Made by a program: the position numbers and the translations under genes
Source of the DNA: Trypanosoma brucei
Lineage: Eukaryota
Length of the DNA: 64,000 bases
Assembly: GCA_000002445.1 (NCBI GenBank)
Contig: CP000069.1
Location: 992,001-1,056,000, forward strand
Reading direction: 5' to 3'
Notes under the pieces: generated by a model
What the model saw: the letters and a program-made list of their open reading frames with translations, nothing else
Database searches by the model: none
Told to the model about the DNA's origin: nothing
Shown here: positions 1 through 43,640 of the stretch, piece after piece
Layout: the number at the start of each line of letters is the position of its first letter
Numbering within the stretch: position 1 is the first letter of the stretch

Positions 1-150
1 AAACGTTATAGAGAGGGTGTGTTAGGATGAATAATAAAGGGAGACTCTGCCACAGTCGCCAGACCGATAGCATCTCAGGGCTCTACGGTGATGGCTGATG
101 GCCGTGCCAGTGGGGGGAAACTCTCACGAAGGCACGAAAAAAAAAATTTT
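1..150 (+). mobile_element. 3' terminal ~135 bp of an ingi/RIME-type retroposon plus poly(A) tail (141-150). The element body lies upstream of the window.
   Basis: Bases 1-134 are essentially identical to 9497-9634, the 3' terminus of the full ingi copy. In both places the match is followed by an A-run. The flanks after the A-run differ. Confidence 0.7.
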
Positions 151-1611
151 TAAAGTCTATAGGCAAACCTCTACCCTGATATGGCTAATGTTATCCGCTA
201 AGAGATTTTGTTCGTGTCAGTATAAGCAGATGTCTCATGCCACAAGAGAATTTACGTATGGTTTTTGCTGCAAACAAACCAAATGATATACTTAAGTTTA
301 CGTGTTTTCTTTCTTATAATTGAAATAGATGACATTATTTTGTCCATCTTTTTTTCCTTTTCTACTGACCAATCGCCTTCCGTATTTCTCATCCTGATGT
401 CGAATATTATTCCTGTTTCCTCATTTTTTATTTCAGTAAACAGCAATTTTGCACAGCTATCACTCGACAAAAAATATGTTAATAATCTGAATAGTAATGA
501 TTATATTATTATAAGAGAACACATTCATGTACGCCACTACTTCTCCCAGTAACAACGATAATCATACATAACATTGTATGTGCGTGTTCACGCGTTTCTC
601 GTACATTATCATTTCTTTTGTTGTAATGTCCCTGTTTGAGTCATCTCAATTGCGAGTTATTATAACTCTGGTTGTCCCTCCACTATCTTTGTTTGGGGGT
701 GGTGGGGTGTGTTAATGCTCTTTGCATGTGGAGTGGGGATAGAGGAATAGGGCCCTGCTTATGTGAAGAGTGTGTGAAGTAAGGATGATGAGAGTTACTT
801 ATAAGGTGTGTAATTATTTTGCGTGTGGAAAATGGTCTAAATGAGGGTGCTGAGAGGGAAGGTCTCTAATTATTCTGGGACTGTTTTGTGTGCTAGCAAC
901 TAACATAATATTCCATCATGCCAACGTATAATGAAAGGTTTCATTAATAAGCTTAATTTTCTGAGATGGTGTTTTGAAACCCCAATTGTTACCTTTACTA
1001 GTGTGTTGTTTAGGAAAATGGAACGCAAGAAGCTGTGTATACATATAGAGAGGGAAAGAAAGAGTATTTCCAGTACGCGTATGAAAGGAAGAGGATATGC
1101 TGAATAGGGCTCAGTAGCAGAGTTGTGTTCATTGGACAAGGGTAACACGTGCGTGCAAATTAGGCACGTGATGTGCCAGCGAATTAAGCTATTAAAGTAG
1201 CAACTGGAGCCAATGGAGGACTTGGAAAAATAGCATAACGTGAAGGTGCAAGTACTCATGAGGAGAATGGATAAGCTTGTTATTGATGGAAGGTGCAGCG
1301 CAGCTCAGTTGGAGGTGCGGTTACTTGGCATGATGGTTAGTGAAGTTTTTTTTTTTTGAATCAAGAAGTTAGGGAAAATGGGGTAACCAACAGGAAAACA
1401 CCTGTGAGGGAACTCAATGTTGATATACGGCTTGAGGGGAGGGTTCCATACAACTCTGTGTGCTTTGGGATGTGCTTCCTCTTTTGTTGAATGCTGCTGT
1501 AGTTGGTTTGTGTCAGGCACTTATTAATTTCGATATTTTTATGTGTCTGTTTGTTGTGTCTGTCAATAACAACAACAATTGTTATGACAAGCTTTAGTTT
1601 TCTCCTCCTTT

Positions 1612-3019
1612 TTGGCTGATGAACGTATAGGCAAAATCACGATGAGGCACGAAGCAGTGTTTGCCATTGGGATGCTTGCGGCTGTTTTATCTCCTTCCTC
1701 TCAGGGTGATTTGAATTCTTTCAAATGGAGGACTGAGATGTTTGACTGGAGCCAGTTTGCGGATGATGTGGATGAAAAAGAAAGGCACCACAACTTTGGA
1801 GAGTTCGAGACACTGCAAGATTTACAGAATTACGCAGGCAGAGGCCCCACAGCCTTCCTTCAAGAATCGTGAAAAGGAAGGAGAGATTCTGAAGAATTTG
1901 GAGGAAATGGTCAGTGAGGCAGAAGCTGTTGGTGGCAATAAGGGCTCGAACAATTCATCTAACAGCACGACAGCATATCAGGAGATGAAGAAACTATTTG
2001 AGAAGGCGAAAAAGCTTAAGGAGCAGATAGAGGTGAATAGGACAAAAGCCTTGAATGCAAGTCGCTCTGCTGAAGAAAATATGTTGAAAGCTGTGTATGG
2101 CGATGCTGTGGATGTGGCAAGAAACGAGAATAAAACTCTGGAGGAAGCCATGAGAGGAAACAAATCACTGCTGTTCAATAGTGTCTACAATGCAGACACG
2201 AGCTGCGGTTCTTTTGGAGACAAGTTAGTCGGAAAGACTCTAATTAATGACTTTTTCTGCCTATGTGTGGGAGAGGCTGTTGATTTAATTAAGAAGTTCG
2301 AAAAGCCAAATAATCATGTATATAAATTAGATGTTCCCGATAGCGATGATAACAATATATATAATGGGTTAAATTGTCCTTGTAAGGATGAAATAAGGAG
2401 ACCTAAAAATGGTAGTTGGACTATGATGGCTGCACATTGTAAAGGTGACAGCAGCAAGTGCAACCCCGACAATATAAGATACAACCATACTGAGGCATGG
2501 GATGTGATTAGTAGAGCTTGCGTGTACAAGAATATTGCATCTAATGTGAAAACCCTAAAGAGTGCATTAGCTCAGTTTGATGCGTTAGTGAATTTGGAAC
2601 AGGGCGGACATCAGGTGAAAGGTATTCTTGGTTATGTGAAAACATTAAACAACGAAAATCGCACATGCACAGGTCACACTGCTGGGTTTACATGCGTCAG
2701 TTACAACTACACACTTAAAAATGGTGGAATTCCATGGTACAACCGCCTCACTAACGCCACCAAGGAACTACAAGAAATGGCGAAGTATGCCAAAGAGGCT
2801 GACAGCCATCTTCATGAGTTGGAAGAATTCCAACATGAGGCAGAGGAAATATTTCTTGAAGTGAAGCTAGGTGGTGATGCAGAGCTATGGAAGAGTAGCC
2901 GAGGTAGGGATGATGGTGAAAGTGGCAATGCTGAAGTAAATAATAATGGATTCAACTATATAGATATAACAACTGATATTTTTACATTAATGATTCTATA
3001 TCTTTTTTGTATATTTTAG
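1612..3019 (+). pseudogene. VSG-like (GPI-anchored surface glycoprotein) pseudogene with a frameshift.
   Basis: A true ATG at 1642 gives a signal-peptide-like N-terminus (MRHEAVFAIGMLAAVLSPSSQG). The reading frame switches from frame 1 to frame 2 around 1742-1872. The ~430 aa continuation is Cys-rich with many N-x-S/T sites and ends in a hydrophobic GPI-signal-like tail (DIFTLMILYLFCIF). It sits beside ingi elements, as VSG pseudogenes typically do in T. brucei. Confidence 0.45.
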
Positions 3020-5402
3020 TTTATTGGTACGTTACCAACATTGTTGTGTAGTGTTTCGATTCTTTATTGTTTTTATTTGGATGCGTTCTTTCTTTTTTTT
3101 TCGAGCCTGACGGTATGTGAGTTTAAAATAATTGCATTTGAATTTTTTTTTCTTTCCTTTGAATGAATAATCAATGTGGTATCACTTTTTCTTTTGTTGG
3201 AATGTGTGTCTTGTCGTTTTTTTTGCTGTTATCAAGATAGCAGCATTTTTTTTTTTTGAAAGCTCGCTGTCGATGCTACGACATCTTATGGGAGCTGAAA
3301 CTTTATGTAACTTTTTTTTATTGTGTATCATGCTGCGTTGTCAGTGTACTATTAGCTTGTTACTATCTGTGTCGGATAAAGCTATATTTGTCTTGTTAAT
3401 GACTTTTATAGGTTGGGTCGGAACTAGTTGTAAAAGACAAGTAGGCGTTACTGAAATTTTAATTTTCAACCATTCGCTATGGCTGTAAAAGCGTACTTGC
3501 GAGTGAAAGGCTTCTGCCTCTTTTTTTTTTTTTTGAGCCAAACGTAGAAGAGCATAGTGGAGTTTACAATTTTCATTCAGAGGAGTGGGCAGCTTTTTGT
3601 GTAGTCTATTCTCCTTTATAGGGGTGTTCCTCTCGAATGAAGAAAGTACATGTTGGAAGAGAATGAGGGGTTTCTCAATTTCTAGGAGGAATTGTGCAAG
3701 GTTCTTGGTGAACACTATCTTCTGCATATTTTTGCCCTCAAGCCCGAAGTAACTGCGGAGCACTTTAGGCTTGAGCGCGCGAGTATGTGGGTGGGATTCT
3801 CTTCGCATTCGTTGGAGTGTGTATGTTTCCTTTCAACGCAGATTTCATGTTTTTGATGGCGATGTATAGATGAGCCTGATGTTGATTGGGACGTCTTATT
3901 TCGGTTTACGAACGTGAAGTGTAGATGAAACCCTCTGACGTTGAAGCTCCGGAGCGGTGGTGGAGATTCTTTTGCTACGGAGAAGGGATGCTGTCTATGC
4001 ATTCCCCCGAAGTGCTCCATCAGGCTGTCTTTTGATACATGCGTATGACGGCATTGCGTGCAACAGGTGTCATTTAGACCTATAGTTACCGTGTTCCAAA
4101 TGAGGGATACCTCTTGTTCTGTGATGGAACGGCTCCGTTTTGTACCAGCGTTACTATCCAGGGGATGGCCTCTGCGGTGTTGAATCTTGGTGCTTGGTGT
4201 TGTTCCCCCTTTTGATTGTGATACAAAGCTGCATTGCCTGCATTGTAGCGGCTCAGATGTGCCTACTGGGTCGTGCACTGGATGCCCTCTCGTTTCCGTC
4301 GCTCGGGAGCCCTTTGTTGGAATACTTGCATTCTCTTCGAGTTCCCATTGCCTTTTTATTCCTCGCGACCCCGTTTGCGGTTGTACTTCGCAGTATTTCA
4401 TCCCGTGACTTATCACTAGTCCAATTTACGTGTGAAATATATAGCTGCGAGGTCCATATATCGCTTCATTTTCTCCAGAGGTTGAACTGGTGGTGTTATC
4501 ACTTTGTTCATTGGTGTTGGGTTGATGCGGTCGGTTTTCACTTTGTGTGCCTATCCGTTTCTCCACCACTGGAATGATGTGCTAAAGCTGACCTCTGCTC
4601 TTTATTCCATGACGCATTGTCGAGTCTCTCTGCTCAATCAATTTGAACCCACAGATTCCTCACTGGAGTGTGTTTTTTATCATATTCAGTGTGGATTATG
4701 GTTCCGCCAGTGTGGGGTGGAAAGGGACTGCCGTTGGTCATGTAGTGTTTCTGTGGCCTGCGCAATGTTAGTACACCTGCGCTCTTGGATTGAAAAAGCC
4801 ACGTTCTGCGCAAACCCATTTGTGCTGTTTGATATTTTCATCTTCTTTCCGCTTCTCCGACATTTCATCGTCTAACTTTCTCGTTTTGCCGTGAAGGCAT
4901 CGAGTTTTGTGCCATGTGAGCCCTCCTTTGTTTCCATAGGATTTGTTACAGACACTGAGCACATACGACTTCGGTGGAGGGGGCAGGGGTTATAAGGTGA
5001 ACATTCCACATCACCGAACAGCAGCATCTTAGTGTGGATGATATACTGCTGATGGCACGCTGGCACGTGCCCAGCGAACGACAAATGAAAAACGGTGTCC
5101 CAGCAAGACGCTGCTGATCCCTGTGTTGTATGATGCCGAGGCCGGAGCACAGCAGAGTTCCCCATGAAAGGAACGCTGCTGGCTCTTGGTTTCCCCCGAT
5201 GATGCGGGGTACTGGACTCTGGCACCACGTGGAGGTGGCCGGCATCGCCAGAGGGCATCGCTGTATTCTCCCGATACCGATCACCATCACATATTTTTCG
5301 ACGTTATCGTTGGAGACGACACAGACTCACTGAGCTGCCCGCGGCTTTGAAAACCCATGCACGCATAGCTAAAAGCTGACTGGAGGAATTTCCGTCTCAA
5401 GG

Positions 5403-7775
5403 TTGACGAGTTCTGCAGAAAAATTGGTAGAGAAGAATGTCAACACCCTGGAACAGAAATTGAGCTCCGCCATCCGCATTGCGACGAAGGTCTCCGTTCC
5501 CCGTGGCTGCAGAGCAACGCCACCACATTGGACACCTGCGCTCGCGAAACTCGATGAAGAGATCGCTGGATACGGACCCTCTCACCGAAGGGAAAAGTTG
5601 GTAGCCACGCGTAAGCAGATCCTGGACCGCACCACAAAGAAGAGATGGAGCACGCTATGCTCCAGACTTGCGGTGTCAGACCGCTGCAGTTGGCACATTG
5701 TCAAGAAAGTATACGCGCCACGACCACTAACCACACCGGCTGTACTTGTTGATAACGCGGCCATCACGGACTACCGTCAAGCTGAGAGGTTCAGTAAACT
5801 GTACTCATCCCGCGCAAGAAGGCACCCCGACTCACACCCACCGGCACACATAAAGACGATAGCGAGTGAGTTTAGTCTCATCACGATAGCTGAACTACGG
5901 AGATCGATCAAACTGCTACCGAGTGGATCCATAGCCGGACCTGATTGCTTATACAACGAGGCACTGCAACATCTCGGTAGAGCAGCGCTGAATGTTGTGC
6001 TGAGGCTATTCAATGAGAGCCTACGAATGGGAGCCGTGCCGTCTGCATGGAAGACCGGTGTTATCATCCCCATCCTGAAGGCCAGAAAAAAGGAAGAGTA
6101 CCCCGAATCTTACAGGCCTGTGACGCTCACGAGCTGTCTCTGCAAAGTCATGGAGCGCATAATTGCCGCAAGGTTTAGAGACACTGTTGAGTCCCAGCTG
6201 ACGCCGCAGCAATCAGGCTTTCGCCCCGGATGCTCACCGCTCGAACAACTCCTGCACGTCTGCGCTGCCCTCTGCCGTCCCACGCACCAATATCGTACAG
6301 GTGCTGTATTCGTTGACTACGAGAAGGCATTTGACACAGTAGACCACGACAAAATTGCGGGGGAAATGCACAGAATGAAGGTATCACCCCACATTGTGAA
6401 GTGGTGCGTATCATTTCTGAGTAACCGAACTGGTAGAGTGAGATTCAAGGAGAAGCTTTCCAGAAGCAGAACATTTGAGCGAGGAGTGCCACAAGGAACT
6501 GTCCTTGGCCCAATCATGTTCATTATTGTCATGAACTCGTTGAGCCAACGCCTTGCAGAAGTGCCGTTGCTGCAGCACGGATTCTTTGCAGACGACCTGA
6601 CGCTACTTGCGAGACACACAGAGAGGGATGTCATCAACCAGACGCTACAATGCGGCCTAAACGTGGTGTTACAGTGGTCAAAAGAGTACTTCATGTCTAT
6701 CAATGTAGCGAAAACAAAGTTCACACTCTTCGGGTGTATAGGGCGCCACCCCCTTACATTGCAACTGGACGGCGAAAGGATAGGAGCTGACAGGACACCG
6801 AAGCTTTTAGGAGTAACATTCCAGTGTCTGCAAGGGATGGCAACACATGCGACCGAAACGAGACGCAAGATGGACTTCCGACTACTGCAGATAACAGTCA
6901 TCTCAGCTTCTATATGGGGGCCAATACGACAAGTGCTGAGAGCTTTTTATCTAGCACTCGTACAGGCACGCACCATGTGTGGCATTGAGGTATGGTACTG
7001 GGACGCTTCGGAACGAAGTCGCGACCTCCTTGCAGCAGCACAACACAAAGCCAGTCGAATCATAGCTGGCATACCGCATGGGACGCGCAAAGAGGACTCT
7101 CTGCTGGAAGCAAACCTCCTGCCACTCAAGACGACCACTCTTGTGCGCAGCATGAAATTCATGCTGATGTGTGAGTCACGAGGCGGATGTTTGCGGCGCA
7201 GTGCTGAGGAAGTATACCACAGCAAACATCCAGTCAGAGCCCTACATTCCCGCATCATGCGGTCCTACCCCCACCTCCGCATTGAGCCACGCGAGCACCC
7301 ACTAGAGACATCGACGCTCCGCCACAGCTGCCGACCGATATTTCACACGCAGATAAAGCCTGTGTGCGCTGATGACCCTGACGATGTCAAAAGGGAGGCT
7401 CCCGAAAAGTGGATTGAACGGCATTTTGCACGGAGGGGGAAGGAGCCACCGCGACGAGAGCACTACGAATTGTGGACTGATGGATCCGTGCCCCTCGGTG
7501 AGAAGTCCGGATCAACTGCCCTGCTCTATAGAAACAACACGCTGATTTGTGCACCCAAGACCGGAGCAGGGGAACTCTCATGCAGTTACAGAGCGGAATG
7601 CGTAACATTAGAGATAGGACTGCAACGGCTGCTGAAATGGCTTCCGGCATACAGAAGCACATCGAGCAGGTTGTCCATCTTCTCTGACTCGCTGTCAATG
7701 TTAACAGCACTGCAGACAGGCCCCCTAGCCGTAACGGACCCAATTCTGAGACGACTATGGAGGCTTCTGCTTTAA
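5403..7775 (+). pseudogene. Reverse-transcriptase ORF fragment of ingi copy 1.
   Basis: A 790-aa ORF with RT domain motifs (SGFRPGCS, VFVDYEKAFDTV, FFADD). It is interrupted by frameshifts before the RNase H segment. The track start codon is TTG, not ATG. Confidence 0.8.
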
Positions 7776-7790
7776 GTTCAGAGAAGGAAG

Positions 7791-8234
7791 GTGCGTATCC
7801 GACTGCAATTTGCGTCCGGCCATTGTGGCGTGAAACGGAATGAGGTTTTCGATGAAATGGCCAAAAAGGCCGCTGATTTACCACAGTTGCGAGACGCATG
7901 GATCCCCGACATCATTGCTTATGCGAAGCGAGTGCTTAGGTCGGAAGAAGTCCATGAGAACACTCATAGGTTTGGTATCACCTGCAACCACTTTCCAACA
8001 AAACATAAAGAAGAACTGACGAGGGAAGAGGAAACGGCACTGGCACGCTTTCGGGTTGGAGTCTTCAAGATACTATGGATGGATGTTGCGAAAGATCAAC
8101 CCGAGTGTGCCTCCACAGTGCCGATGGTGCAACCCGCAACATGCAGCAATAGGGCCAACAATACAAACAGTCCCAACTGTTGCGACACGCACTCTTCAGA
8201 GAACCTCCGAACCAACCAAATGTACGGAATGTGA
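7791..8234 (+). pseudogene. RNase H segment of ingi copy 1 (frameshifted).
   Basis: Motif LQFASGHCGVKRNEVFDEMAKKAA. Confidence 0.7.
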
Positions 8235-9519
8235 TGCCACATACCAATACCTGTCGAATGCTGTAACGCACATGGTAAACAAACATGGCTTTGTGCGAGC
8301 TGATGCCCTCCGGAGGATCAAATACGGCGATGCAACACCCGCAGTGGACATCCTCCCGGAGACCCCTCCAGTGGTGGCGATCGTTTCTTTACCATCGAGC
8401 ATACGAGTCCTGATGAGACCGCAGGTGCTTTACTGTACCCTCTGTGCCTCCAAATTCGCAGTGCCAGGCCGACTATTACACCATCTTAGAACAATACATG
8501 GCATAGGCAGCGGTAGTTGCCGCGTGAAAAGGGGGCGAGAGAGCGAGGACTCAGTGCAAGGAGATGGTAGCGTCCCAGCAGCCCCAGCCCCTCAGGAAAC
8601 ACGGAAGCTGCCGTTTCAATGTGACCTGTGCGAGGCGAGCTTCAGTACACGTTCTTCCCTGTCACTACACAAGAAATTCAAGCATAAGAGCATAGTGACG
8701 GAGGACGGTACCGTGGTGGTGTTGCAATTCCCTCGTAAGCGTGCTCGTGAGGGAAACGTTGACGTGCCGGGGAAAGGCGAGGTGCAGTGTGGTGTGTGTC
8801 CAAAAGTGCTCAGTTGCAGTGACTCCCTCATCCGACACTGTAAGGCTTTCCACAAAGGTGAGGGAGTCGAGCTTAAATGCAGCAAAAGCACAAAATTGCG
8901 TGCCACTGATTCCCCGCATACAAATGCATCCATGTTGGTGCGCCCGACATGCGGAAGGCAGTGTGCTAGCAAAACTGGCCTCACCCTACATCAAAAGAAG
9001 ATGCACGGTATGAAGGTAGAGCGCGCTGTTACCAGCCAACGCGGCGACTGCGAAGAAACGTCGCTGCACCTGATGAGCTGTCCCGGTTTGAAGGAGTTAC
9101 GTGTCAGGTTTGCGGTAGAAGGTGAGTGTGTGCAGGATATATGTTTTTCCAAAAGGCTGGCGCAATTTCTCATTGCGGTTGAACGGAGCCGGCCGCAGGT
9201 GAAGTCCTCACCTAATGTAACAGTCATACAACCCACTCTCCCTTCTGCAACTTCCCAGCTTATTGCTGAGAGTGGAGCTAGCAGGAAAAGCACCGGACGC
9301 AGGAATAGTCCAGACACCCTCAGAGAGGGGGTATGCAGTCAACAAGCAACAGAAACAGAAAGAGGGGGAGAGAATAATAAACAAAGAACAAAATTCAAAA
9401 CAAAAGGATTGCTAATTGACATTTTTGTGAGAGTCCGGGGTGGGAGGCTTCTCGCCCCATCTGCTGTATTCCGTTTAACTGCGGAACTACAACAAAACGT
9501 TATAGAGAGGGTGTGTTAG
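8056..9519 (+). pseudogene. C-terminal C2H2-like zinc-finger segment of ingi copy 1.
   Basis: Multiple C-x2-C...H-x3-5-H units (CTLCASKFAVPGRLLHHLRTIHG, CDLCEASF...HKKFKHK, CGVCPKVLSCSDSLIRHCKAFHKG). Confidence 0.7.
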
Positions 9520-9568
9520 GATGAATAATAAAGGGAGACTCTGCCACAGTCGCCAGACCGATAGCATC

Positions 9569-10750
9569 TCAGGGCTCTACGGTGATGGCTGATGGCCGTG
9601 CCAGTGGGGGGAAACTCTCACGAAGGCACGAAGAAAATTCCAAAAAAAAAAAAATAGAGAAGCATATATCCTGCACACACTCACCTTCTACCGCAAACCT
9701 GACACGTAACTCCTTCAAACCGGGACAGCTCATCAAGTGCAGCGACGTTTCTTCGCAGTCGCCGCGTTGGCTGGTAACAGCGCGCTCTACCTTCATACCT
9801 TGCATCTTCTTTTGATGTAGGGTGAGGCCAGTTTTGCTAGCACACTGCCTTCCGCATGTCGGGCACACCAACATGGATGTGTTTGTATGCGGGGAATCAG
9901 TGGCACACAATTTTGTGTTTTTGCTGCATTTAAGCTCGACTCCCTCACCTTTGTGGAAAGCCTTACAGTGTCGGATGAGGGAGTCCCTGCAACTGAGCAC
10001 TTTTTGGCACACACCACACTGCACCTCGCCCTTCCCCGGGACGTCAACGTTTCCCTCACGGGCACGCTTACGAGGGAATTGCACCAACACCACGGTACCG
10101 TCCTCCGTCACTATGCTCTTATGCTTGAATTTCTTGTGTAGTGACAGGGAAGAACGTGTACTGAAGCTCGCCTCGCACAGGTCACATTGAAACGGCAGCT
10201 TCCGTGTTTCCTGAGGGGCTGGGGCTGCTGGGACGCTACCATCTCCTTGCACTGAGTCTTCGTTCTCTCTCCAACTTTTCACGCGGCAACTACCGCTACC
10301 TATGCCATGTATCGTTTGAAGGTGGTGTAATAGTCGGCCTGGCACTGCGAATTTGGAGGCACAGAGGGTACAGTAAAGCACCTGCGGTCTCATCAGGACT
10401 CGTATGCTCGATGGTAAAGAAACGATCGCCACCACTGGAGGGGGCTCCGGGAGGATGTCCACTGCGGGTGTTGCATCGCCGTATTTTATCTTTCGAAGGG
10501 CATCAGCTCGCACAAAGCCATGTTTGTTTACCATGTGCGTTACAGCATTCGACAGGTATTGGTATGTGGCATCACATTCCGTACATTTGGTTGGTTCGGA
10601 GGTTCTCTGAAGAGTGCGTGTCGCAACAGTTGGGACTGTTTGTATTGTTGGCCCTATTGCTGCATGTTGCGGGTTGCACCATCGGCACTGTGGAGGCACA
10701 CTCGGGTTGATCTTTCGCAACATCCATCCATAGTATCTTGAAGACTCCAA
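9569..10750 (-). pseudogene. C-terminal C2H2-like segment of ingi copy 2 (3'-truncated).
   Basis: 393 aa, near-identical to 8056-9519 up to the truncation point. Confidence 0.7.
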
Positions 10751-11015
10751 CCCGAAAGCGTGCCAGTGCCGTTTCCTCTTCCCTCGTCAGTTCTTCTTTA
10801 TGTTTTGTTGGAAAGTGGTTGCACGTGATACCAAACCTATGAGTGTTCTCATGGACTTCTTCCGACCTAAGCACTCGCTTCGCATAAGCAATGATGTCGG
10901 GGATCCATGCGTCTCGCAACTGTGGTAAATCAGCGGCCTTTTTGGCCATTTCATCGAAAACCTCATTCCGTTTCACGCCACAATGGCCGGACGCAAATTG
11001 CAGTCGGATACGCAC
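10572..11015 (-). pseudogene. RNase H segment of ingi copy 2.
   Basis: 147 aa, identical to the copy-1 segment. Confidence 0.7.
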
Positions 11016-11030
11016 CTTCCTTCTCTGAAC

Positions 11031-13346
11031 TTAAAGCAGAAGCCTCCATAGTCGTCTCAGAATTGGGTCCGTTACGGCTAGGGGGCCTGTCTGCAGTGCT
11101 GTTAACATTGACAGCGAGTCAGAGAAGATGGACAACCTGCTCGATGTGCTTCTGTATGCCGGAAGCCATTTCAGCAGCCGTTGCAGTCCTATCTCTAATG
11201 TTACGCATTCCGCTCTGTAACTGCATGAGAGTTCCCCTGCTCCGGTCTTGGGTGCACAAATCAGCGTGTTGTTTCTATAGAGCAGGGCAGTTGATCCGGA
11301 CTTCTCACCGAGGGGCACGGATCCATCAGTCCACAATTCGTAGTGCTCTCGTCGCGGTGGCTCCTTCCCCCTCCGTGCAAAATGCCGTTCAATCCACTTT
11401 TCGGGAGCCTCCCTTTTGACATCGTCAGGGTCATCAGCGCACACAGGCTTTATCTGCGTGTGAAATATCGGTCGGCAGCTGTGGCGGAGCGTCGATGTCT
11501 CTAGTGGGTGCTCGCGTGGCTCAATGCGGAGGTGGGGGTAGGACCGCATGATGCGGGAATGTAGGGCTCTGACTGGATGTTTGCTGTGGTATACTTCCTC
11601 AGCACTGCGCCGCAAACATCCGCCTCGTGACTCACACATCAGCATGAATTTCATGCTGCGCACAAGAGTGGTCGTCTTGAGTGGCAGGAGGTTTGCTTCC
11701 AGCAGAGAGTCCTCTTTGCGCGTCCCATGCGGTATGCCAGCTATGATTCGACTGGCTTTGTGTTGTGCTGCTGCAAGGAGGTCGCGACTTCGTTCCGAAG
11801 CGTCCCAGTACCATACCTCAATGCCACACATGGTGCGTGCCTGTACGAGTGCTAGATAAAAAGCTCTCAGCACTTGTCGTATTGGCCCCCATATAGAAGC
11901 TGAGATGACTGTTATCTGCAGTAGTCGGAAGTCCATCTTGCGTCTCGTTTCGGTCGCATGTGTTGCCATCCCTTGCAGACACTGGAATGTTACTCCTAGA
12001 AGCTTCGGTGTCCTGTCAGCTCCTATCCTTTCGCCGTCCAGTTGCAATGTAAGGGGGTGGCGCCCTATACACCCGAAGAGTGTGAACTTTGTTTTCGCTA
12101 CATTGATAGACATGAAGTACTCTTTTGACCACTGTAACACCACGTTTAGGCCGCATTGTAGCGTCTGGTTGATGACATCCCTCTCTGTGTGTCTCGCAAG
12201 TAGCGTCAGGTCGTCTGCAAAGAATCCGTGCTGCAGCAACGGCACTTCTGCAAGGCGTTGGCTCAACGAGTTCATGACAATAATGAACATGATTGGGCCA
12301 AGGACAGTTCCTTGTGGCACTCCTCGCTCAAATGTTCTGCTTCTGGAAAGCTTCTCCTTGAATCTCACTCTACCAGTTCGGTTACTCAGAAATGATACGC
12401 ACCACTTCACAATGTGGGGTGATACCTTCATTCTGTGCATTTCCCCCGCAATTTTGTCGTGGTCTACTGTGTCAAATGCCTTCTCGTAGTCAACGAATAC
12501 AGCACCTGTACGATATTGGTGCGTGGGACGGCAGAGGGCAGCGCAGACGTGCAGGAGTTGTTCGAGCGGTGAGCATCCGGGGCGAAAGCCTGATTGCTGC
12601 GGCGTCAGCTGGGACTCAACAGTGTCTCTAAACCTTGCGGCAATTATGCGCTCCATGACTTTGCAGAGACAGCTCGTGAGCGTCACAGGCCTGTAAGAAT
12701 CGAGGTACTCTTCCTTTTTTCTGGCCTTCAGGATGGGGATGATAACACCGGTCTTCCATGCAGACGGCACGGCTCCCATTCGTAGGCTCTCATTGAATAG
12801 CCTCAGCACAACATTCAGCGCTGCTCTACCGAGATGTTGCAGTGCCTCGTTGTATAAGCAATCAGGTCCGGCTATGGATCCACTCGGTAGCAGTTTGATC
12901 GATCTCCGTAGTTCAGCTATCGTGATGAGACTAAACTCACTCGCTATCGTCTTTATGTGTGCCGGTGGGTGTGAGTCGGGGTGCCTTCTTGCGCGGGATG
13001 AGTACAGTTTACTGAACCTCTCAGCTTGACGGTAGTCCGTGATGGCCGCGTTATCAACAAGTACAGCCGGTGTGGTTAGTGGTCGTGGCGCGTATACTTT
13101 CTTGACAATGTGCCAACTGCAGCGGTCTGACACCGCAAGTCTGGAGCATAGCGTGCTCCATCTCTTCTTTGTGGTGCGGTCCAGGATCTGCTTACGCGTG
13201 GCTACCAACTTTTCCCTTCGGTGAGAGGGTCCGTATCCAGCGATCTCTTCATCGAGTTTCGCGAGCGCAGGTGTCCAATGTGGTGGCGTTGCTCTGCAGC
13301 CACGGGGAACGGAGACCTTCGTCGCAATGCGGATGGCGGAGCTCAA
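11031..13346 (-). pseudogene. Reverse-transcriptase ORF fragment of ingi copy 2.
   Basis: A 771-aa ORF nearly identical to 5403-7775 (for example EYLDSYRPV versus EYPESYRPV). Confidence 0.8.
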
Positions 13347-15452
13347 TTTCTGTTTCAGGGTGTTGACATTCTTCTCTCTACCAATTTTCCTGCAGAGCTC
13401 GTCAACCTTGAGACGGAAATTCCTCCAGTCAGCTTTTAGCTATGCGTGCATGGGTTTTCAAAGCCGCGGGCAGCTCAGTGAGTCTGTGTCGTCTCCAACA
13501 ATAACGTCGAAAAATATGTGATGGTGGTCGGTATCGGGAGAATACAGCGATGTCCACCTGGACACTGTGAAATTCCTTGATAGCGTCATATCAGGGGTGG
13601 GCTCCACGTGGTGGCGCGCGTACCTGGTGCACTCACCAGTGTTACATACCAGAAGCTGGTTGGAACTTAAATTTAACGTTCATTGAACGGTTAAGGACTC
13701 TTGTGTGTGCGGCAACGGGCGCCAGCTTATTTACCCACTCTTGCTCTTGGGTACGTTAGCAGGACCTAATTTTCCCCGCCAGTGCTCCACAAACAAATTA
13801 TGTTGGGTCAGTGGGCGGTCACCCATACCACTGCGTATTATTGAAGCGTGCTCTGTGGGGTTGAAACGATTCGGTTCGCTGGTGGATGGATTTTCGGGTA
13901 AGTCCCGATGCACATGTGAGGCTCGCGGCCAGTGGCGTGGCTTCTGTTAAGCGTAGCGATTACGTCTTGATTCCGTTTTTCTTAGTTTGGACGGTGTGGT
14001 GGCACATGCGGAGGCGGTGTTGGTTAACAGTCGCTGATAGCACCAACTGCGCATGTCCTGTTGTATGTTTCGCTTCCAGTCCCTCAAATGGCAGGGGCTT
14101 GGTAATTGACAAGGTGGTCCGCGGAAAAGCATGTGAAGATCTGAAAGTGTGTCTTGAATCCCTGTAGATATGGAGGTGGTGGCATCAATGCGACGACTTC
14201 CCCACTTCATCTTAATATATATGTATTAGCTTGAAGGAACGCATGGGAACACGCAAAGGCACGGTGATTGCAGGCCAGCTGTGCTGAAAGATGGGATGGA
14301 AATGAGAGTACCACAAACGTGAGGGTGTACTGCTCTTCTTTCCGCACGAAGCGTTTGTGTAGTAAATGTGAGGTATGGCAGGCGGCGCGTGCAGAAACGC
14401 AGTGTACGGAAAGCGACTCCCATCATTACGGGGAAATTTCCAAGGAGAACGACAACGGAATACACGTCAGCGGTGCGTCGCGCTTCCCGACGCATTCCAA
14501 ACATCGTCTCAGGGAGTTTGAGATGTCAAGCTTCTCATATGGGAATGTGGAGAAAGAAAAGAAGCCCACGTCGTCTTATGACTGGAAATACTGGAAGCCC
14601 TTTGCTAATCCTCTCAAACGATGCCCGGCGCAAAAGATGAGACACATAATATAGGTGACGGTGACTGTGGTGTAACTCTTGCCGACGGACTCGAAGCTGG
14701 CGAAGCTCCTTCGGGAAGAAATCAATATCATTGCGAAAACCTTCGAAACCGGTGGCGGCGGGTGCTCATTCACCCCCCTTCCCCCCTGGGTTCTTGTCCT
14801 CGTCGACCTTCATTTCGCACCGCATGCGTTGAGGGCCGTTCTGTTGCCGCCATCTGGTTGATGTTGATGAAGTTCTTCTTCTTTAGCCCTTTTATTTCCG
14901 ACGAAGGTGTCGCACACACGTGGGAAAACGCAGAGTGCGTTTGTGCGTATGGGGACTGAGACGCTCAAATCACTAAATATGCAACACGCTGACGTACTGG
15001 GGGTGAAAATAAAACGATGGAAAGAAGAAAGTTACCAACTTTTCAGAAATAAGCAAGCAAGTCACAAAAAGTTTATGCTTACACATTCGTGGTAGCCTGT
15101 GGTTCAGCGGTATCAACATTGTGGTAAACAATGGTTCAGTTGTTGTTCAAATATACACATTTGCTCACACAAAAATGAGCTCATTTTTTTTTTTTTTGAA
15201 ACATTTGATAATGGTATCATTTGGAAATTGGCGATGTAGATGTTTCGATATTAAATTACAGGGTATAATGACATCCAGTGATCGCCAACTCCGGTATTCT
15301 GATTTGACAGAGGGGCATTTCCTTTCCCCCAACCTTTTAGCATCGCTTTCCATGCCCGAATTTGTAAAAAAAAAAAAAAGAAATAACCGATTTTCACTCT
15401 ATTTGTCACATCTCCAGAGTAAAAGGTTTCCTTTCAACTGTGTCTGTGTGTG

Positions 15453-16388
15453 TTACCCGTGGGGAGGGGTGTCCCGACGCGCAGTTGTCGGCGCCGGGCA
15501 GGCTGCCCTTTTCGGTGGAGTGTCGGCTTGCGCAATGCGCACAGGCAGGCAAAAACAAGGACCACAATTCGCATGGCTAAACTTTCCCCAGTCTGCCAAA
15601 TCAGTGGCTGAGTGAAGAAACTGTGCTTCCTCAATTTTGGGGCATACATCGCTTACTTCGGCTTCTGGTTTGTATAACTGTGAAAATTTCCGCGTTCGTT
15701 TTTCTAATAGACCAAGATCACGTGCCACCTTTGCCTCCTGGCGTATTGCAGCAAGATGTGCGGCATTTGCTTCCTCCACTCGCCTTATGATGCGGTGCTT
15801 CTCGTTAATCAACCTTTTAAGTTCCCTTTCTGCGTCTGCATGTGCGGCCTGGGATGAGAGTCCCTCATTTTCCTCCTGCACAACCGAGTCATATGCGTCG
15901 CATTCCTTAATCTCGTTTTTCAAAGTCTCCAGCTTGAGTCGCAGCTGCCCAACTTCCATACTAAGACTATGTATGGAGTGCTTCACTTCGAGGTATTCCC
16001 GTCTTTGCAACGCTTCTGTGGGTGATTTCTTACCAACTGTCCCCTTGCCCGTATTGAAGCACGCACCCATACCATTTATTTTGATGATCGCCTCTTTCCT
16101 CTGTGAACGCGCGGCCTCAAGTCGCAATTCCAGTTTAACCACTTCACCGTAGTCAAGCACATCAGTTGCCATGGAGGCAATCTGATCCCCCAACAGCGCC
16201 TTCTCTTCAAGCAGTTTGCCCAGCAATTCTTCAAGATACCGAAGTTCCTCCTCATCTTCGCTAAGCTCCACATTCCGACGTACTTGTTTTGCATGAGCGA
16301 ATCTTCTGGATGAGGGCCGTGCCGATTCAGCTGCTTTCCCAACTTTAACCAAAGGGGCTGTTCCCGGTCTCTTGTTCTTTAGTGTCAT
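15453..16388 (-). CDS. Hypothetical coiled-coil protein (311 aa).
   Basis: ATG confirmed at 16386-16388. A long heptad-like charged region follows (EELRYLEELLGKLLEEKALLGDQ...LKLETLKNEIKE). Confidence 0.6.
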   Translation of the reverse strand: MTLKNKRPGTAPLVKVGKAAESARPSSRRFAHAKQVRRNVELSEDEEELRYLEELLGKLLEEKALLGDQIASMATDVLDYGEVVKLELRLEAARSQRKEAIIKINGMGACFNTGKGTVGKKSPTEALQRREYLEVKHSIHSLSMEVGQLRLKLETLKNEIKECDAYDSVVQEENEGLSSQAAHADAERELKRLINEKHRIIRRVEEANAAHLAAIRQEAKVARDLGLLEKRTRKFSQLYKPEAEVSDVCPKIEEAQFLHSATDLADWGKFSHANCGPCFCLPVRIAQADTPPKRAACPAPTTARRDTPPHG

Positions 16389-29816: not shown

Positions 29817-32800
29817 AGGTCTCCTTGTGTGTTGTGAACGCTTTTGCAGAAACAACACGGTTCAGGTTACTTTTTTCTCCTAACTTCTTTGACGGTTCTT
29901 TCCTACAACCCACAAAGCGACATCAATATCAACAGTAATAATAGTAATAAGAACATCGTCGACGGGACATAGTGAATGGAAATGGAAGGAAAACACAAGA
30001 GGAATGAATTTACGAGTATTGATGTGTGTGTGTGTGTGTCGAGGGGAGGGGAGACAACCATAATTCTAACGAAAGTACGACACGAATTTCATATTGATAT
30101 TTGTACATTAACAGGCTGTTTCACTTATTCCTTTTATGGTTTATCCACCACTTCGTTTTGCCTCTCCGCCAGTTCGCCCAGCAGTTCAAATGAGCAGATG
30201 CAGTGCTACGCCGTAGTAAAAGCTAATTAATTAATGTGTCATGCATTTGTCTATAACGTTATTTTTACTTTCCTATATGTGACGTGGTGAGAAGATAAAA
30301 GAGAGTGATAATAAAAAGTGAAAATATTGTTCATTTACTTCTACAACTTCAAAAAACTCAATTTGTAGCATCAAACTTTATAATTTTCATGATATCACGA
30401 ACACTGGAGCGGATCACAGTGATCAATGTTAATCAAACGGAATGCACTGCATAAACAAGTAAACAAGCACAAGCGCACGACAGAAATAGAAAGGAAAAAA
30501 AAAACAAACAAAAGTACTGTGGTGTGACGACAACAACAATAAAGGCAGTACGATAATTTTATTTTTGAAGAAAAAAATAATTAATTTATCGTCCATGCCG
30601 CGTTATTTACTTTTCCCTTACCATCTAGTACGTTTGTCTTTTTTTTTTTTCAACTTCTGCATATGATATTGTTTCGCTTGTTTGTCTGCTGGTTCTGTTT
30701 TCCCTCCTCACATTTTCATATTTCCTTGAAAAAAGGAAAAAAAGTAAATAAAGAAAAACATCTTTAGTAACAACAAAAAAAAGCAAATATTCCCCCCTTC
30801 GCTGTGGTTATATACACAAATATATATATACATATATATATATTTATACATATATGTCTGACGAGGGTTAAAAAAAAACCGACAACAAATATGCAAAAAA
30901 AAATCGTGAAGATTATATCTCACCACGTGTGCGAGTCTTAGTTTTTTTTTATTTTTACAAAACAAATTCTCTACCTCACTAACACTATATGTGACGAATT
31001 TTATTTTTGTGTCTTCCGTGTTTTCCTTCAACTCCTTTCCTTCTTCAAATTATTTAATTTACTTTTCTTCGCTTTCGCTTTACTCCAACCCCCACCCACT
31101 TTTTTTTTTATTTTCCTTCATCTTTTTTTTTTTAAATGTCCCCTTCTTTTTCCCCTTTGAATGGTGTGAAAACAAGAAAAAAAAAGGAAAGGAAAGATGG
31201 AAAAGGGAAAAAAAATTTCTTTGTTTCCTTCAATATATATATTTATTTATTTACCTCTCTGTTGTTGATTTCATTTCTACTGCCCTTTTCTTTTGTTCCC
31301 TTCCCCCACTCAACAAATACTTTTAAAATAATGCAAATAGATAAATATATATGTATTGTATATACGTATATTTGAACAACTTTCTAGTAAGGGAAGAAAA
31401 AATTTTAATGGATGAAAATAAATATTTCTTTGCATGAAAATGTAATGGGAAGCAAAGTGGTAAAAAATGTTGCGGAGTTTGCCCGTCACGCACAGATTTT
31501 ACTCCTACTCTCATCATATGTTGATGTTCCTCTTTTTTTTTCCCCCTTCTTCTTTTTTATTTTTTTTACTAATTTTCACTTTCATTTGTATTTCTTCCGC
31601 ATGAGGTTTTTCGTGACATATGCAAACATACACACAAAAACACAAAAAACATAAAGAAGAAAAAAAAAAGGGAACGACAAAAAACAAAAAAAGAAATTGG
31701 TGAGTGAGCCTAACAGCCAGTCAAAATAATATAAAATAATAATTTTATTTAAAAAAAAACGGCATAAATATAAATAAATACAAAACAAAAGGCATACATA
31801 TATAAACTCACACAAACAAACATACATATAAATATATAAATATATATTTTAGAGGTGAAGAGGAAAGTTGGATACACATTTTCATAAATAAAAGCAAAAT
31901 AGATTGAAATGAAATGAGAATAAATTTGAGGAGCTTTGTAAAGAGATGTTGGAAGAGGTGAGGATGGGGTGGAGGAAAGGAAATAATTTTCTTGACAAAG
32001 GTGCACGAGGGGTACGTGTCCACGCACACATTAAAATACGCGAGCGCAATAAAATAAATATGTGTAGGATATATATAAATTTATATATGAAAAAAAAAAG
32101 AGGGAATAAATTTGTAGTGTTGACGCTGACAAAAAAAAATTGAAAAAAAAATTATACGAAGCTTACAAAAAGGCGTTAAATAGGATGTCCCCACCAACAT
32201 CGTGTTCCACCACAGGAATCAAAATTATGAAATTGAAATAATTTCGCCGTCGGTTCTCGGATTGCACTCGCGCATGATCTAACAACAATCAAACATAAAA
32301 GAATCATTGCAAAGAAAAAGATAATAATGATAATAATAAAAACGAAGGTAAATCCAGAAACCGGAGAAAACGATATTAACGGAAGCTCTCGAAGGTGATG
32401 TGGACTGTTTCCCAAAGAATTTAACATTACATAAAATTTTCCTTTTTATTTAAGTGAATTCTCTCTTTTCACTGAAATTTAGGTATTATTAGTGCTAACT
32501 ACCATTTCCTCCTTTTTTTTGTTATGTTATTTCTATTTGTGCCTTTGCCTTTGAGTTTTCACTCCATGAATTCCGCAACACGTGCTAACATACTCTCATC
32601 CATTTGATAATGATTTTTTCTTTTTCTTTCTTCATTTAACACTCAGTGACCTCTGTACGGCTTTCCTTCCATCTTAACAGATTCCTTCCATTTACCCCGT
32701 CTTTCTGATTTCGTAACTGCTTGTATTTTATTTTATTTTATTTCTCCTTTTCACTAACTTCACACACTTATTTTTTTTATATTTTTCTTTGATACAATGC

Positions 32801-33446
32801 TGCTGTTATAGTCATTGTTCCCCCTTTTTCCCATCGTTTTCACACCTTTTTCAAAAAAAAAAAAAAGGTCATGTGCTGCTTAACTGCTGGGGGAAAACAA
32901 TGGCTGAAGAGGATGTGAATTCCTCCCCTAGCATTCATAAAAATAATAGTAATAAATGAAATAAAAAGTAATTTCTTTTGAACAATTAATATATAAATAT
33001 ATTTATATCCTCCGTTCATCGTTTTTCAATTATTATTTTTATTATTTTTATTTGAATTGCCGTCATTAACTACTCATTTTCAAGAAATGTGTTGACCTTC
33101 GCTCTTGAAGGTGTTTCCGTTTTGTTTGAGTACAAAATTGCAGATAAATCGCTTTCTTTTTTTTTGTTTCGTCTTCTCCCTTTATTCAATTTCTGTATGT
33201 ACTTCTTTTGTATTTTTAAAAAATATATAAATATATATATCTTTTCTCGATTTCAACAGACATTTGCAAAGGGAAGTGTAATGAGGCGAGGCGGGAGGGA
33301 GGGAAGGAAGGGAAGGAGTTTATGATGATGATGAGAGGAAAGGAAGCAGCACGACACCGTAACTGCAAAAATATCTCAAAGGTGAAAAAAAAATTTAATA
33401 AAAAAAAGACATAAAACAAAGCAAACGGAAAAGTAGAAAAAAGCTT

Positions 33447-33462
33447 CCCCCCCCCCCCCCCC
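33447..33462 (+). repeat. C16 homopolymer (G16 on the minus, transcribed strand).
   Basis: Read directly from the sequence. Confidence 0.9.
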
Positions 33463-35973
33463 AACAAAAGACAGTGAGGATGCTCTCAAAAAAAAAAAAG
33501 GGAAAGAAAGGAGAAAAAGAGGGAGGAGAAGTCATGCAACAAAAACAACAATAATAATAATAATGAAACAGATAATTTCGAAAAAAAAAATTAAAAACGA
33601 TAAGGAAATGAAAAAAAATTTAGGTACAAAAGACAATGAAAAAAATGTAAAATAACGACTTTTACAACACCAAGAAGTTGTTTCAGAATAATATTGCAGT
33701 GACCATATTAATAAATGCAAACACACGCTTGCATGAAGACGTTGTAGCCCCCTTTTCCTCTCTGTTCTATTCCCTTATCATCTCCTTTTAAATCCGTTCA
33801 TCCATTCATTCATTCATTCACCTGTTTAAACATTTAAGCATTTACTTGATACGTCTTTTTCTTTCCTTTTCTTTACAATAACACGAGACTTTCAGGAGTT
33901 ATCGGTGAATTAATTTCCCAGTTTGTGCGAAATGAAATTCACTAACAGAAGAATTTTTAAAAATTGGAAGCATTTCTTCATTGCCATTTAAGCAATAAAT
34001 GGAGAAGCAAAAAAAAAAAAAGAATGAATAATACATTTTAAGAAAAAAAAGGAAAAAAGACTCTGAAGGTAAATAATAGGAGAAAAACGATTTGATGGGG
34101 GTTTCTGTACAACCTCATATCGTTTTAACCATATTTTAATTGCTTTCTCGGTCTTTCGAGTGTAATATTGTTGTAATATTTATCATTTTTGTTTTTTGTA
34201 TAACATATAAGTCACCTTTGTGTATTATTATTATTATTATTACACCTTTGCTTTTACTCCCTTTTACCTCTCTGTTTCCATTTGAATAACCCCTACCTTT
34301 TCTCCCCCTCCTCATAACACATGACGGAAATACATAAAACCTGCGCAAAAACGAGGTAAATTATAATACAAATACACAAGAAAAAGATTTATTTATTATC
34401 TTTTTAAATAATCCTTTTTTTTTATTTGACTCTACAACAGAATAAAATGAAATTGAAACAGCAAACAAGGATGTATCGACAAAAAAAAAAACAGAGTATT
34501 TGAAACGAAGACACCCAGTTTGTCGTTGTTTCCTGTATTTCATTTTCAAAAAAAAATTATTTATTTCGTCTCTTTCTTTTTGGTTAAACTCTTTTTCATT
34601 GCCTTTCCCTCACCACAAAGGTATCATAATTGCTACAATAACAGAAATAACAGCAACAGTAAGACTAATAATAGTAAAAACAATAATAATTGCATTCATT
34701 TTGAGCAGTGCTTTATTTTTTTAAAAAAAAACTTATTGTTTTTTAATTTCAATGCATTTCACCTCTATTTCTTCTAATTTCCCCCACTCCCCTTTTAATT
34801 CCTCTTTTTTAAAAATGAATTGGGTGCGTTGTTTCCTTACTAACTTTTGTTCTCGACTTTTATTTTTTTTCCCCCCTTCCATTTGCTCATTAATTAATTA
34901 ATTCTCACATTTGATTGACTGATTTATTTATTTATTCACATTAAAATAAAAAAAATCGATTTGTTCCTTGTGCGTTTTCTTTACTTCACTTCGCTTAACT
35001 TCACCGCTCGAAATGGTGCAATGCAAACCCGCGGGAAGAAAAGAAAAAAGAGAAAAAAGTTACCGTAATTATTTCCTCTTCTTTTCTTTTAGATTTGTTA
35101 CTATTTTTTGTTTTTTTTCCGATCCTTCCCTATTTTTTTTTTAAAAAAGGACAAAACAATAAAAGGCAACCCCAAATACTCCTTGGTAAAAAACGGAAAT
35201 AAAATAGGAAAAGACACATTTCCACATTTCCCCTTTTAAAACACACATGCGTAAACACCGCAGCATGTGGAACAAAATATTTTAAAGCTGCTTTGCAAAA
35301 AAAAAAATTTTATCCCTCAACACAAACATTTACACATATATTCGTAAATTTATATGCTCAAGTTTTTGTTTACTTTCCGTGGGATTTTACTCATTTCGTT
35401 ACTTTGTTCAGTTGTTTCTTCTGTTTAAATTATTATTTAAATATATCCTCTTAGGTTGATTTCCCTCATAATTTTCACACACATCACCAAGTACCGGGAG
35501 GGATAAAAATTAAAGGGAAATTTTTTTTAAAAAATAAGTAAATACAAAACTAGCATTAATAATAACAATAATAAAGAAGATATCACATGAGAGGAGGAAA
35601 AAAGAGTCAACAACAGGGAGGCTGAAACCCTCACCCCACCCCCCTCACACACACACATACACACATATATATATATATATATGTACGTATATATTGACAC
35701 ATATAAAACTATAAATAATCACATAACTTAGCCACGCCCCACAATTCTTATTATTGACTGTTTTTTTTTCTTTTCTTTTCCCCCCTCTTCCTCTTCTCCT
35801 TCTATTCTCTTTTTAACACACGCACACCACAACACCGCAACCATACGCCGCCGCCGCCACCGCCTTCCCCTTCGTTTCAATAGCCTCTGGTGGAAATGAC
35901 CATTATCACACAACTGCTGCTGTTATTGTTGTTATTAATACTATTTGTATTAATACTATTATTAATGTTACCA

Positions 35974-40000: not shown

Positions 40001-40346
40001 TATAAATAAATATCTCATATTTGCTTCATTACTTCATTTCACTCATTTTATTTTACTTTTTTTTTTGTAACTCTCGTCTTTTCGTCACTTGTGTATCATT
40101 ACTCCGATAACATTTCATTTCCCTTCCCCTTTTTTTTCTCTTTCTCTCTATCTCTATCTCTTTTTCTTTTTTTAATTTGTTCCTTTTTATGGGTTCTCTT
40201 TCAGGCGATGGCACAAAAATAGTAATGATACCGATGGAAGTGTAAACAATAACAAAAAGAAAAAAAAAGAAAAAGAAAAAAAACCGAAAAAAGATGACGG
40301 TACCATCGGCGCCATTTTTCTTTTTTTTTTTTAAAGGAAGCAGCAG

Positions 40347-40372
40347 TAATAATAATAATAATAATAATAATT
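40347..40372 (+). repeat. (TAA)n microsatellite, about 8 units.
   Basis: Read directly from the sequence. Confidence 0.9.
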
Positions 40373-43300: not shown

Positions 43301-43580
43301 ATTTATTCTTCTGGTTACCTATCTGTTGATCTATTGATTGATTCATTTTGCATCGCTTTCCTTTTCCTTCTCTCCTTTTCTTTTGTGCTTTTGCATATTT
43401 TTTTATCTCTTATTCTCCTTTGCATTTTTTTTTTTGGTAAAGTGTGGAAAGGGAACTAAGAGGAATTCCTTTTTTAAAAAATAAAAATCCCCTTTCCCAC
43501 CTAAACCTCATATCTCAATTACGTTTCTCCTTCCTTCCTTTCTTATTTCCTTTTTTGTGTCTTTTTTTTTCCATTAATTT

Positions 43581-43599
43581 CCCCCCCCCCCCGCCCCCC
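43581..43599 (+). repeat. C12-G-C6 tract.
   Basis: Read directly from the sequence. Confidence 0.9.
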
Positions 43600-43640
43600 T
43601 CCCATTCAACTTCATTTCGTTCCGTCCATTTTAGATGTTG

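Follow-up and report, generated by a model that had tools for sequence, protein, structure and literature searches.

A tail-to-tail pair of truncated ingi fragments forms a long inverted repeat in a retroelement island on chromosome 6 of Trypanosoma brucei TREU927

The window analysed is a stretch of 64,000 nucleotides that corresponds to positions 992,000-1,055,999 of chromosome 6 of T. b. brucei TREU927 (NC_007279). A preliminary interpretation made before any comparison with databases (the sequence-only reading) had proposed that two near-identical copies of the retroposon ingi lie close to the left end of this window on opposite strands, with their 3' ends facing each other and a spacer of ~0.5 kb between them. 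The tail-to-tail layout, the near-identity and the separation of ~0.5 kb are all recovered by our analysis. The pair is located at ~997.25-1005.66 kb of the chromosome and is composed of the following parts (positions are those of the window, unless another sequence is named):

5253..9149, plus strand: left arm, ingi ~860-4756, with the end of the endonuclease region, the reverse transcriptase (RT), the RNase H and the C2H2 fingers; pseudogene
9150..9654, plus strand: centre (the "spacer"), ingi ~4757-5259 including the RIME-B half, with an A13 tail at 9642-9654
9655..13662, minus strand: minus ingi fragment, ingi ~746-4760, no poly(A); the right arm is its part 9657-13555
13556-13662, minus strand: part present in the minus copy only, ingi ~746-860, no left-arm partner

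The ingi positions are those of a T. b. equiperdum IVM-t1 ingi (L001 4509-9767, beginning CCCTGGCGATGCCGGCC), which was used as a ruler. Alignment to this ruler places window 5253-9650 on ingi 860-5259 and, on the minus strand, window 13662-9657 on ingi 753-4758. The DNA identity to the IVM-t1 ingi is 94.4% for both copies, over 4407 columns (plus copy) and 4009 columns (minus copy), and the identity to three other ingi copies is comprised between 94.6 and 95.1%. The intact ingi protein P0132 (1656 aa), used as query with the algorithm TBLASTN, matches the plus copy with its residues 283-1654 and the minus copy with its residues 247-1605, at 85-94% identity. The Pfam domain RVT_1 was detected in open reading frames (ORFs) of both arms (E values of 7e-44 and 1e-43), and C2H2 zinc fingers were likewise found in both. 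A 790-aa ORF of the left arm is 92% identical to its best match, annotated as "reverse transcriptase [Trypanosoma brucei equiperdum]", and its farther matches are ingi-clade proteins from T. congolense and T. vivax. The assignment of the elements to ingi was correct. The coding content attributed to them (RT, RNase H and C-terminal segments) is retained by Pfam for the RT and the C2H2 fingers, whereas the RNase H is recognized by homology only, is interrupted by a stop and falls below the Pfam threshold.

The sequence that separates the arms is no spacer. The 507-nt centre belongs to the plus copy, of which it is the final 0.5 kb with the tail, and is therefore not foreign DNA; what had been described as two ingi copies and a spacer is a pair of truncated pseudogene fragments, the gap being the 3' end of one of them. 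Comparison with the gambiense copy indicates that the minus copy runs via CTTCTCTA to position 9655, and therefore the A13 tail touches its truncated 3' end. The junction 9654/9655 thus reads A13 followed by TAGAGAAG, with the tail of the plus copy directly against the minus copy and zero filler in between. Both arms are entered as "Partial INGI" in a published ingi/RIME catalogue (PMC4660242, Supplementary file 1), and the elements themselves are therefore already known. The plus entry covers 997256-1001652 (element 856-5257, 5' truncated, 3' complete) and the minus entry 1001655-1005662 (element 746-4752, both ends truncated) (PMC4660242). The 100-nt upstream sequences given in the catalogue match exactly window 5157-5256 and the reverse complement of 13663-13762, which fixes the position of the window on NC_007279. 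In the literature searched for ingi tail-to-tail and for the gene identifiers, no description of the inverted arrangement was found.

A complete ingi was defined as an element of ~5.25 kb, with RIME halves at both ends (~250 nt each), a 77-79-nt Pr77 signature at its 5' end and a single ORF that encodes the endonuclease, the RT, the RNase H and the C2H2 fingers. Both copies are colinear with ingi at high identity, and neither of them has the length, the Pr77 signature or the single long ORF of a complete, autonomous element. The plus copy has only the 3' RIME half and the minus copy has neither half. The Pr77 signature is absent from both arms; the nearest one (5257->~5181, minus strand) heads another element and points away from the palindrome. 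The homology to P0132 starts at residues 283 and 247, so that the 5' promoter/ribozyme region and the endonuclease are missing from both copies. Two lesions are common to both copies: a premature TAA at 7773-7775 (plus) and 11031-11033 (minus), at about residue 1123, and a frameshift near 8050-8060 (plus) and ~10750 (minus), at about residue 1215. The plus copy bears in addition a 2-nt deletion at 5430. No target-site duplication was seen at the ends of either element when the sequence was read, the plus copy having its A13 and the minus copy no tail. Both copies are dead fragments that can neither promote their own sense transcription nor encode a protein, and the pair is presumably without any activity of its own.

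The arms 5253-9149 and 13555-9657, compared with BLASTN (region against window), are reverse complements with 98.87% identity over 3899 columns and one gap. They are colinear, the left arm is 3897 nt long, and the distance between the arms is 507 nt. An identity below 90% or a loss of colinearity had been set beforehand as grounds for discarding the pair, and the observed values are far from it. The limits proposed for the arms at the outset (5215-9143 and 9662-13600) lie within ~45 nt of those measured here, the minus-strand ingi itself extending to 13662. An inverted-repeat search of 3-16 kb, and then of the whole window, identified the ingi pair as the sole long inverted repeat of the 64 kb; this search splits the arms at their indel into 5429-9149/9657-13377 and 5253-5433/13375-13555. 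The only other resemblance of the arm region within the window is between 9495-9637 and 1-143 (99% identity).

A column count of one arm against the other gives 42 substitutions (28 of them transitions) and one 2-nt indel (5430/13376-13377). These differences are not evenly distributed. The outermost 0.2 kb (5255-5451) has six and the 840 nt that adjoin the centre (8310-9149) have 32 (binomial P for excess 7e-14), whereas the central 2858 nt (5452-8309) contain only four (99.86% identity; binomial P for depletion 5e-18). The arms are consequently 3-4% apart at both ends and near-identical in the central tract, and several of the differences fall in tight groups of three to four. Relative to three other ingi copies, the changes prove private to one arm or the other, with 21 in each; five additional ingi proteins, used for comparison, show that the coding differences are mostly confined to a single arm. 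The block pattern expected from gene conversion in a palindrome, i.e. a homogenised tract between diverged flanks, is present, and the shared stop and frameshift are both inside the putative conversion tract. This distribution points to an older pair, ~3.8% apart, in which a recent arm-to-arm gene conversion would have covered ingi ~1060-3915.

The orthologous locus was compared in T. b. equiperdum IVM-t1 (L003), T. b. gambiense DAL972 (L004) and T. equiperdum OVI. The junction between the flank and the ingi (ingi ~746) is identical in TREU927, OVI, IVM-t1 and DAL972. IVM-t1 and DAL972 each have a single ingi next to the core, which runs past position 4760 to ~5259 and a poly(A), and no inverted partner was found within 10 kb of it in these two genomes. 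The IVM-t1 and DAL972 copies are 97% alike and have a 33-nt deletion in common. This deletion does not occur in the TREU927 arms, which are ~95% identical to the IVM-t1 and DAL972 copies and no closer to them than to an unrelated ingi. The 107 nt at window 13556-13662 contain 8-10 private substitutions with respect to four other ingi copies, the adjoining flank being 98-99.8% identical between genomes. In OVI the flank is 99.7% identical and the contig breaks at the start of the ingi; its scaffold contains the junction between a retroposon head and ingi 860 that forms the outer end of the left arm in TREU927. The DNA that follows the poly(A) in IVM-t1 corresponds to window 144-3425, inverted relative to the core. 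In DAL972, the DNA past the core-proximal ingi (L004 17459-17559 and 19485-20936) differs from that of TREU927 and of IVM-t1 and enters an assembly gap, after which there is a second ingi in the same orientation with an intact 5' end.

Judging from the genomes compared, the tail-to-tail arrangement is lineage-specific and is not conserved at this position in IVM-t1 and DAL972. As a partial model, a crossover between the right arm and the full-length ingi located upstream of the window, which are mutually inverted, would interconvert the TREU927 and IVM-t1 arrangements; this model predicts a tail-to-tail pair ~10 kb further out in IVM-t1. A single crossover as the sole difference between TREU927 and IVM-t1 was rejected: it explains the inversion of 144-3425, but not that the right arm nowhere resembles an orthologue of the IVM-t1 or DAL972 copy. 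The structural differences between subspecies fit an island prone to rearrangement or recombination, and they are also usual for ingi/VSG islands.

The sequences surrounding the pair are the following:

1..146, plus strand: 3' end of an ingi, the last 143 nt and A10 of a nearly full-length element upstream of the window
1742-3019, plus strand: VSG_B ORF of 425 aa, with a match to the C-terminal part of the domain only
3494..5257, minus strand: retroposon-like unit of ~1.76 kb, with a RIME-A-like head, a 228-aa ORF and an A14 tail; adjoins the outer end of the left arm
13663..15452, no strand: unique flank, 1.8 kb between the minus ingi and the last housekeeping gene
15453..16388, minus strand: conserved hypothetical gene, 311 aa; last gene of the minus cluster, transcribed toward the palindrome

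The nearly full-length ingi upstream of the window is a plus-strand element at NC_007279 987151-992143 (PMC4660242). Just before it (NC_007279 987051-987151), ~20 nt correspond to ingi ~860-880 in reverse complement. A junction between antisense ingi 860 and position 1 of an element is therefore observed twice, before the upstream ingi and at the outer end of the left arm (window 5253-5280): either insertion took place twice at the same target nucleotide, or one of the junctions is an inverted duplicate of the other. The ORF at 1742-3019 is probably a VSG pseudogene in a chromosome-internal island; in IVM-t1, the counterpart of the VSG region contains an additional RIME inserted near window position 1375.

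The head of the retroposon-like unit (5257->5004) corresponds to ingi 1-255 on the minus strand, and its Pr77-type 5' signature is directed away from the palindrome. Its ORF (4416->3715) is Tb927.6.3400, a protein of 228 aa with no Pfam match that is one of a cluster of 21 proteins described as "T. brucei spp.-specific" and encoded on many chromosomes, and its A14 tail is seen as T14 on the plus strand at 3521-3534. Window 5251-3494 is 93.8% identical to a single block of chromosome 3 of IVM-t1 (L008 7151-8905), which has a RIME-A-like head at its start and an A-run at its end. The whole unit recurs on that chromosome, and the inverted RIME-A piece is therefore the head of a separate element of ~1.76 kb. 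In the first 255 nt, the window copy is nearer to ingi than the chromosome 3 copy. Twin priming was considered as the origin of the inverted 255->1 piece and rejected: the piece continues unbroken into a 1.5-kb body with its own ORF and A-tail, and this combination recurs elsewhere. An origin from L1Tc of T. cruzi, suggested by the Pr77-like sequence at 5140-5252, was also rejected on the basis of the protein matches and of the synteny with T. brucei.

On the other side of the pair, every ORF with a recognizable domain between 15.4 and 61 kb is on the minus strand and heads toward the palindrome, the last one ending 1.8 kb away from it. This last gene encodes a 311-aa protein identical to XP_845459.1 (TREU927) and to its T. 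equiperdum OVI orthologue. Look-ups of two window proteins and of P0138 returned no record. The cluster also includes an RsfS-like protein, a kinase, a WD40 protein, an RRM protein, RME-8 and a radical-SAM enzyme. The proposal that the pair marks the 3' end of a polycistron agrees with these housekeeping genes, which all face the pair, but the minus-strand ORF Tb927.6.3400 (3715-4416) is found beyond it. Within the minus cluster, positions 30000-46000 form a 16-kb AT-rich stretch (GC content of 0.26-0.32) that is non-tandem and contains a single ORF, the RRM protein at 35974-37017 (minus). A link to the centromere was rejected: the chromosome 6 array is located between Tb927.6.180 and.190, the primers of the Tb12 probe are absent from the window, and the window is devoid of tandem arrays. 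No tRNA genes and no structured RNAs of Rfam were found at the locus.

A transcript across the locus had been expected to fold into a hairpin, and in-silico folding agrees: the inner 807 nt are predicted to form an uninterrupted, perfect stem (-461 kcal/mol, z = -37). The full hairpin would have a stem of ~3.9 kb with 1% mismatches and a loop of ~0.5 kb. In duplex DNA, the 507-nt centre makes cruciform extrusion unlikely, whereas intrastrand pairing during replication is possible. We propose that the pair would have been born by local rearrangement among the inverted ingi copies of the island, not by two clean retrotranspositions, and that its arms may later have exchanged sequence by arm-to-arm gene conversion. 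RNA polymerase II may reach the pair from either side, starting in the minus-strand genes to its right or in the full-length ingi to its left. Entry from the right would yield sense ingi (13662->9655) followed by the tail and antisense ingi, and entry from the left would give the mirror product. The transcript would fold back into a double-stranded RNA (dsRNA) stem of ~3.9 kb with the ~0.5-kb loop, and the T. brucei Dicers would process this stem into ingi small interfering RNAs (siRNAs) for AGO1. The locus would then be one contributor among many to the known pool of ingi siRNAs. A hairpin RNA produced by read-through from the minus cluster is structurally plausible.

Several published results bear on this scheme. 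Reads from ingi represent 52% of the AGO1-bound small RNAs and form the largest class of siRNAs; AGO1-bound siRNAs also come from each of the seven long inverted repeats known in TREU927 at that time (PMC3447711). The loci of siRNAs are enriched in H3.V and their small RNAs increase upon loss of H3.V (PMC4721609); depletion of RBP33 increases ingi transcripts (PMC4162612). This work on ingi and inverted-repeat siRNAs, H3.V and RBP33 makes the hairpin-source reading reasonable. The pair is listed neither in the inverted-repeat table nor in the table of convergent transcription units of Tschudi et al. 2012 (PMC3447711), and its absence from the one systematic survey of inverted repeats is probably due to the fact that it is retroposon sequence.

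Taken together, we consider with a probability of about 0.6 that the locus is a lineage-specific palindrome of two dead ingi fragments within a retroelement/VSG-pseudogene island, whose arms underwent gene conversion and which would contribute siRNAs as a hairpin. A number of observations weigh against this interpretation. The junction 9654/9655 was seen in the TREU927 assembly only, the OVI contig breaking at the ingi, and an exact-protein look-up of the ORF that spans the junction returned no other record. The proximal copy of TREU927 is ~5% away from the copies at the same position in other genomes, and this already holds for its first 107 nt; a simple crossover does not predict this divergence. 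The excess of differences close to the centre could reflect a locally raised mutation rate and not a conversion tract elsewhere. We infer both the transcription across the locus and the dicing from sequence, and the small-RNA survey pooled the ingi reads over all copies, none being tied to this locus (PMC3447711).

Among the other explanations, the one that survives best is that of two independent retrotranspositions: a plus-strand ingi would have integrated, through target-primed reverse transcription, within the 3' part of a minus-strand ingi already resident there, and the similarity of the arms would be that of a young subfamily. The A13 tail abuts the minus copy at the transition from a pyrimidine run to an A-run (TCTCTA/AAAGG in intact copies), a nick site in the style of LINE endonucleases, and three other genomes show the resident copy to be ancestral at this position. 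However, an insertion of this kind accounts poorly for the lack of a target-site duplication, and the missing remainder of the minus copy (ingi ~4761-5259 and tail) is not found beyond the plus copy, where the head of a different element is located. The common stop and frameshift and the presence of only 4 differences in 2858 central positions also disagree with two independent copies, and the distance of the minus copy to the copies found at the same position in other subspecies is not smaller than that to an unrelated ingi. We regard this origin as unlikely.

Still less probable is a selected function, by which the palindrome would be kept as a hairpin trigger for the silencing of ingi, or as a transcription terminator or boundary that separates the core cluster from the VSG/retroelement island. 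The position directly downstream of a gene cluster, and an identity of the central tract far above that of unrelated ingi copies, would suit such a role, and Tschudi et al. have speculated that selection or RNA interference might preserve long inverted repeats (PMC3447711). But two other subspecies do not have the arrangement at this position, and the arms decay freely at both ends and bear disabling mutations. Moreover, gene conversion alone gives a high identity of palindrome arms without selection. An assembly artefact, in which mis-joined or collapsed ingi reads would account for the tail-to-tail join or for the near-identity seen over the central 2.9 kb, is in keeping with the multicopy nature of ingi, with a junction that the other assemblies compared do not support and with the different arrangement in IVM-t1 and DAL972, but appears very improbable given that the 42 private substitutions and the indel, evenly split and concentrated toward the junction, are unlike a fold-back chimera or a collapsed repeat, that the outer left junction (retroposon head and ingi 860) also exists in T. 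equiperdum OVI, that the flank junction is common to all genomes compared, and that the catalogue made from the RefSeq chromosome gives the same two fragments, though it was built on the same assembly (PMC4660242).

If the dead pair is indeed a hairpin source, a stronger role might be imagined for it, i.e. that of a strain-specific master hairpin, whose constitutive read-through from the neighbouring cluster would be a main primary trigger of ingi RNA interference in TREU927. We regard this as improbable. If true, strains that have no pair at this position would depend on other sources of dsRNA, and the origin of ingi dsRNA would be directly testable at this locus.

The siRNAs of ingi constitute the largest class of small RNAs in T. 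brucei, and as a rule their reads cannot be assigned to single copies. The locus described here is a defined and, by its structure, obligatory hairpin former with 42 arm-specific variants and unique junctions, so that its contribution is measurable in already existing data. Its practical value is that of a copy-resolvable test case for the origin of ingi dsRNA. It also illustrates, as a worked example, the remodelling of a chromosome-internal retroelement island by inverted ingi copies, with three subspecies that differ and a clear conversion tract. The current understanding is not changed by these results: siRNAs from retroposons, siRNAs from inverted repeats and repeat-mediated rearrangement are all established in T. 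brucei.

Compared with known systems, the two fragments resemble the ingi/RIME elements (ingi/L1Tc clade) by 94.4% DNA identity over 4.4 kb, by 85-94% protein identity, by their RT and C2H2 fingers and, for the plus copy, by a RIME-B end and a poly(A). They differ from a complete ingi by the absence of ingi 1-~750/860 (the Pr77 promoter/ribozyme and most of the endonuclease) and by the stop and the frameshift in both copies; the minus copy additionally lacks the last 0.5 kb and the tail. In LINE-1 twin priming, one RNA gives rise to an inverted 5' segment and a sense 3' segment in one insertion. The inverted ingi 255->1 directly before the plus copy, which starts at 860, has a similar appearance with its 5-nt overlap, but the inverted 255 nt belong to the separate 1.76-kb unit and not to one insertion.

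The palindromes of the human Y chromosome are large and are homogenised by arm-to-arm gene conversion. The ingi pair has in common with them a 99.86% tract over 2.86 kb between inverted arms otherwise 3-4% diverged, but it is only partly homogenised, its arms are devoid of functional genes and its scale is far smaller. The animal loci of hairpin-RNA endo-siRNAs are dedicated and conserved transcription units with defined targets. As in the fold modelled for the pair, an RNA that spans both inverted arms provides Dicer with a long perfect stem; in contrast to these loci, the ingi pair is a retroposon rearrangement that is unconserved between subspecies. The animal class itself is cited in PMC3683921.

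The closest system is that of the inverted repeats IR1-IR7 of TREU927, whose hallmark as siRNA loci is the presence of AGO1-bound RNAs of 22-25 nt, of both polarities, that cover the arms and the centre and are fewer in Dicer mutants (PMC3447711). Their table has no chromosome 6 entry, and their arms have 0-14 mismatches, versus 42 in the pair, which is built of a multicopy retroposon, so that its reads would count as ingi. The pair nevertheless falls within the structural definition of these loci (arms of at least ~0.4 kb, ~99-100% identity, megabase chromosome) and shares with them kilobase-scale arms of ~99% identity (3.9 kb, versus 3.6 kb for IR3) and a short unique centre on a megabase chromosome (PMC3447711). 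The ingi elements, the type of location and the class of small-RNA source are known, and the pair is a further example in the same organism.

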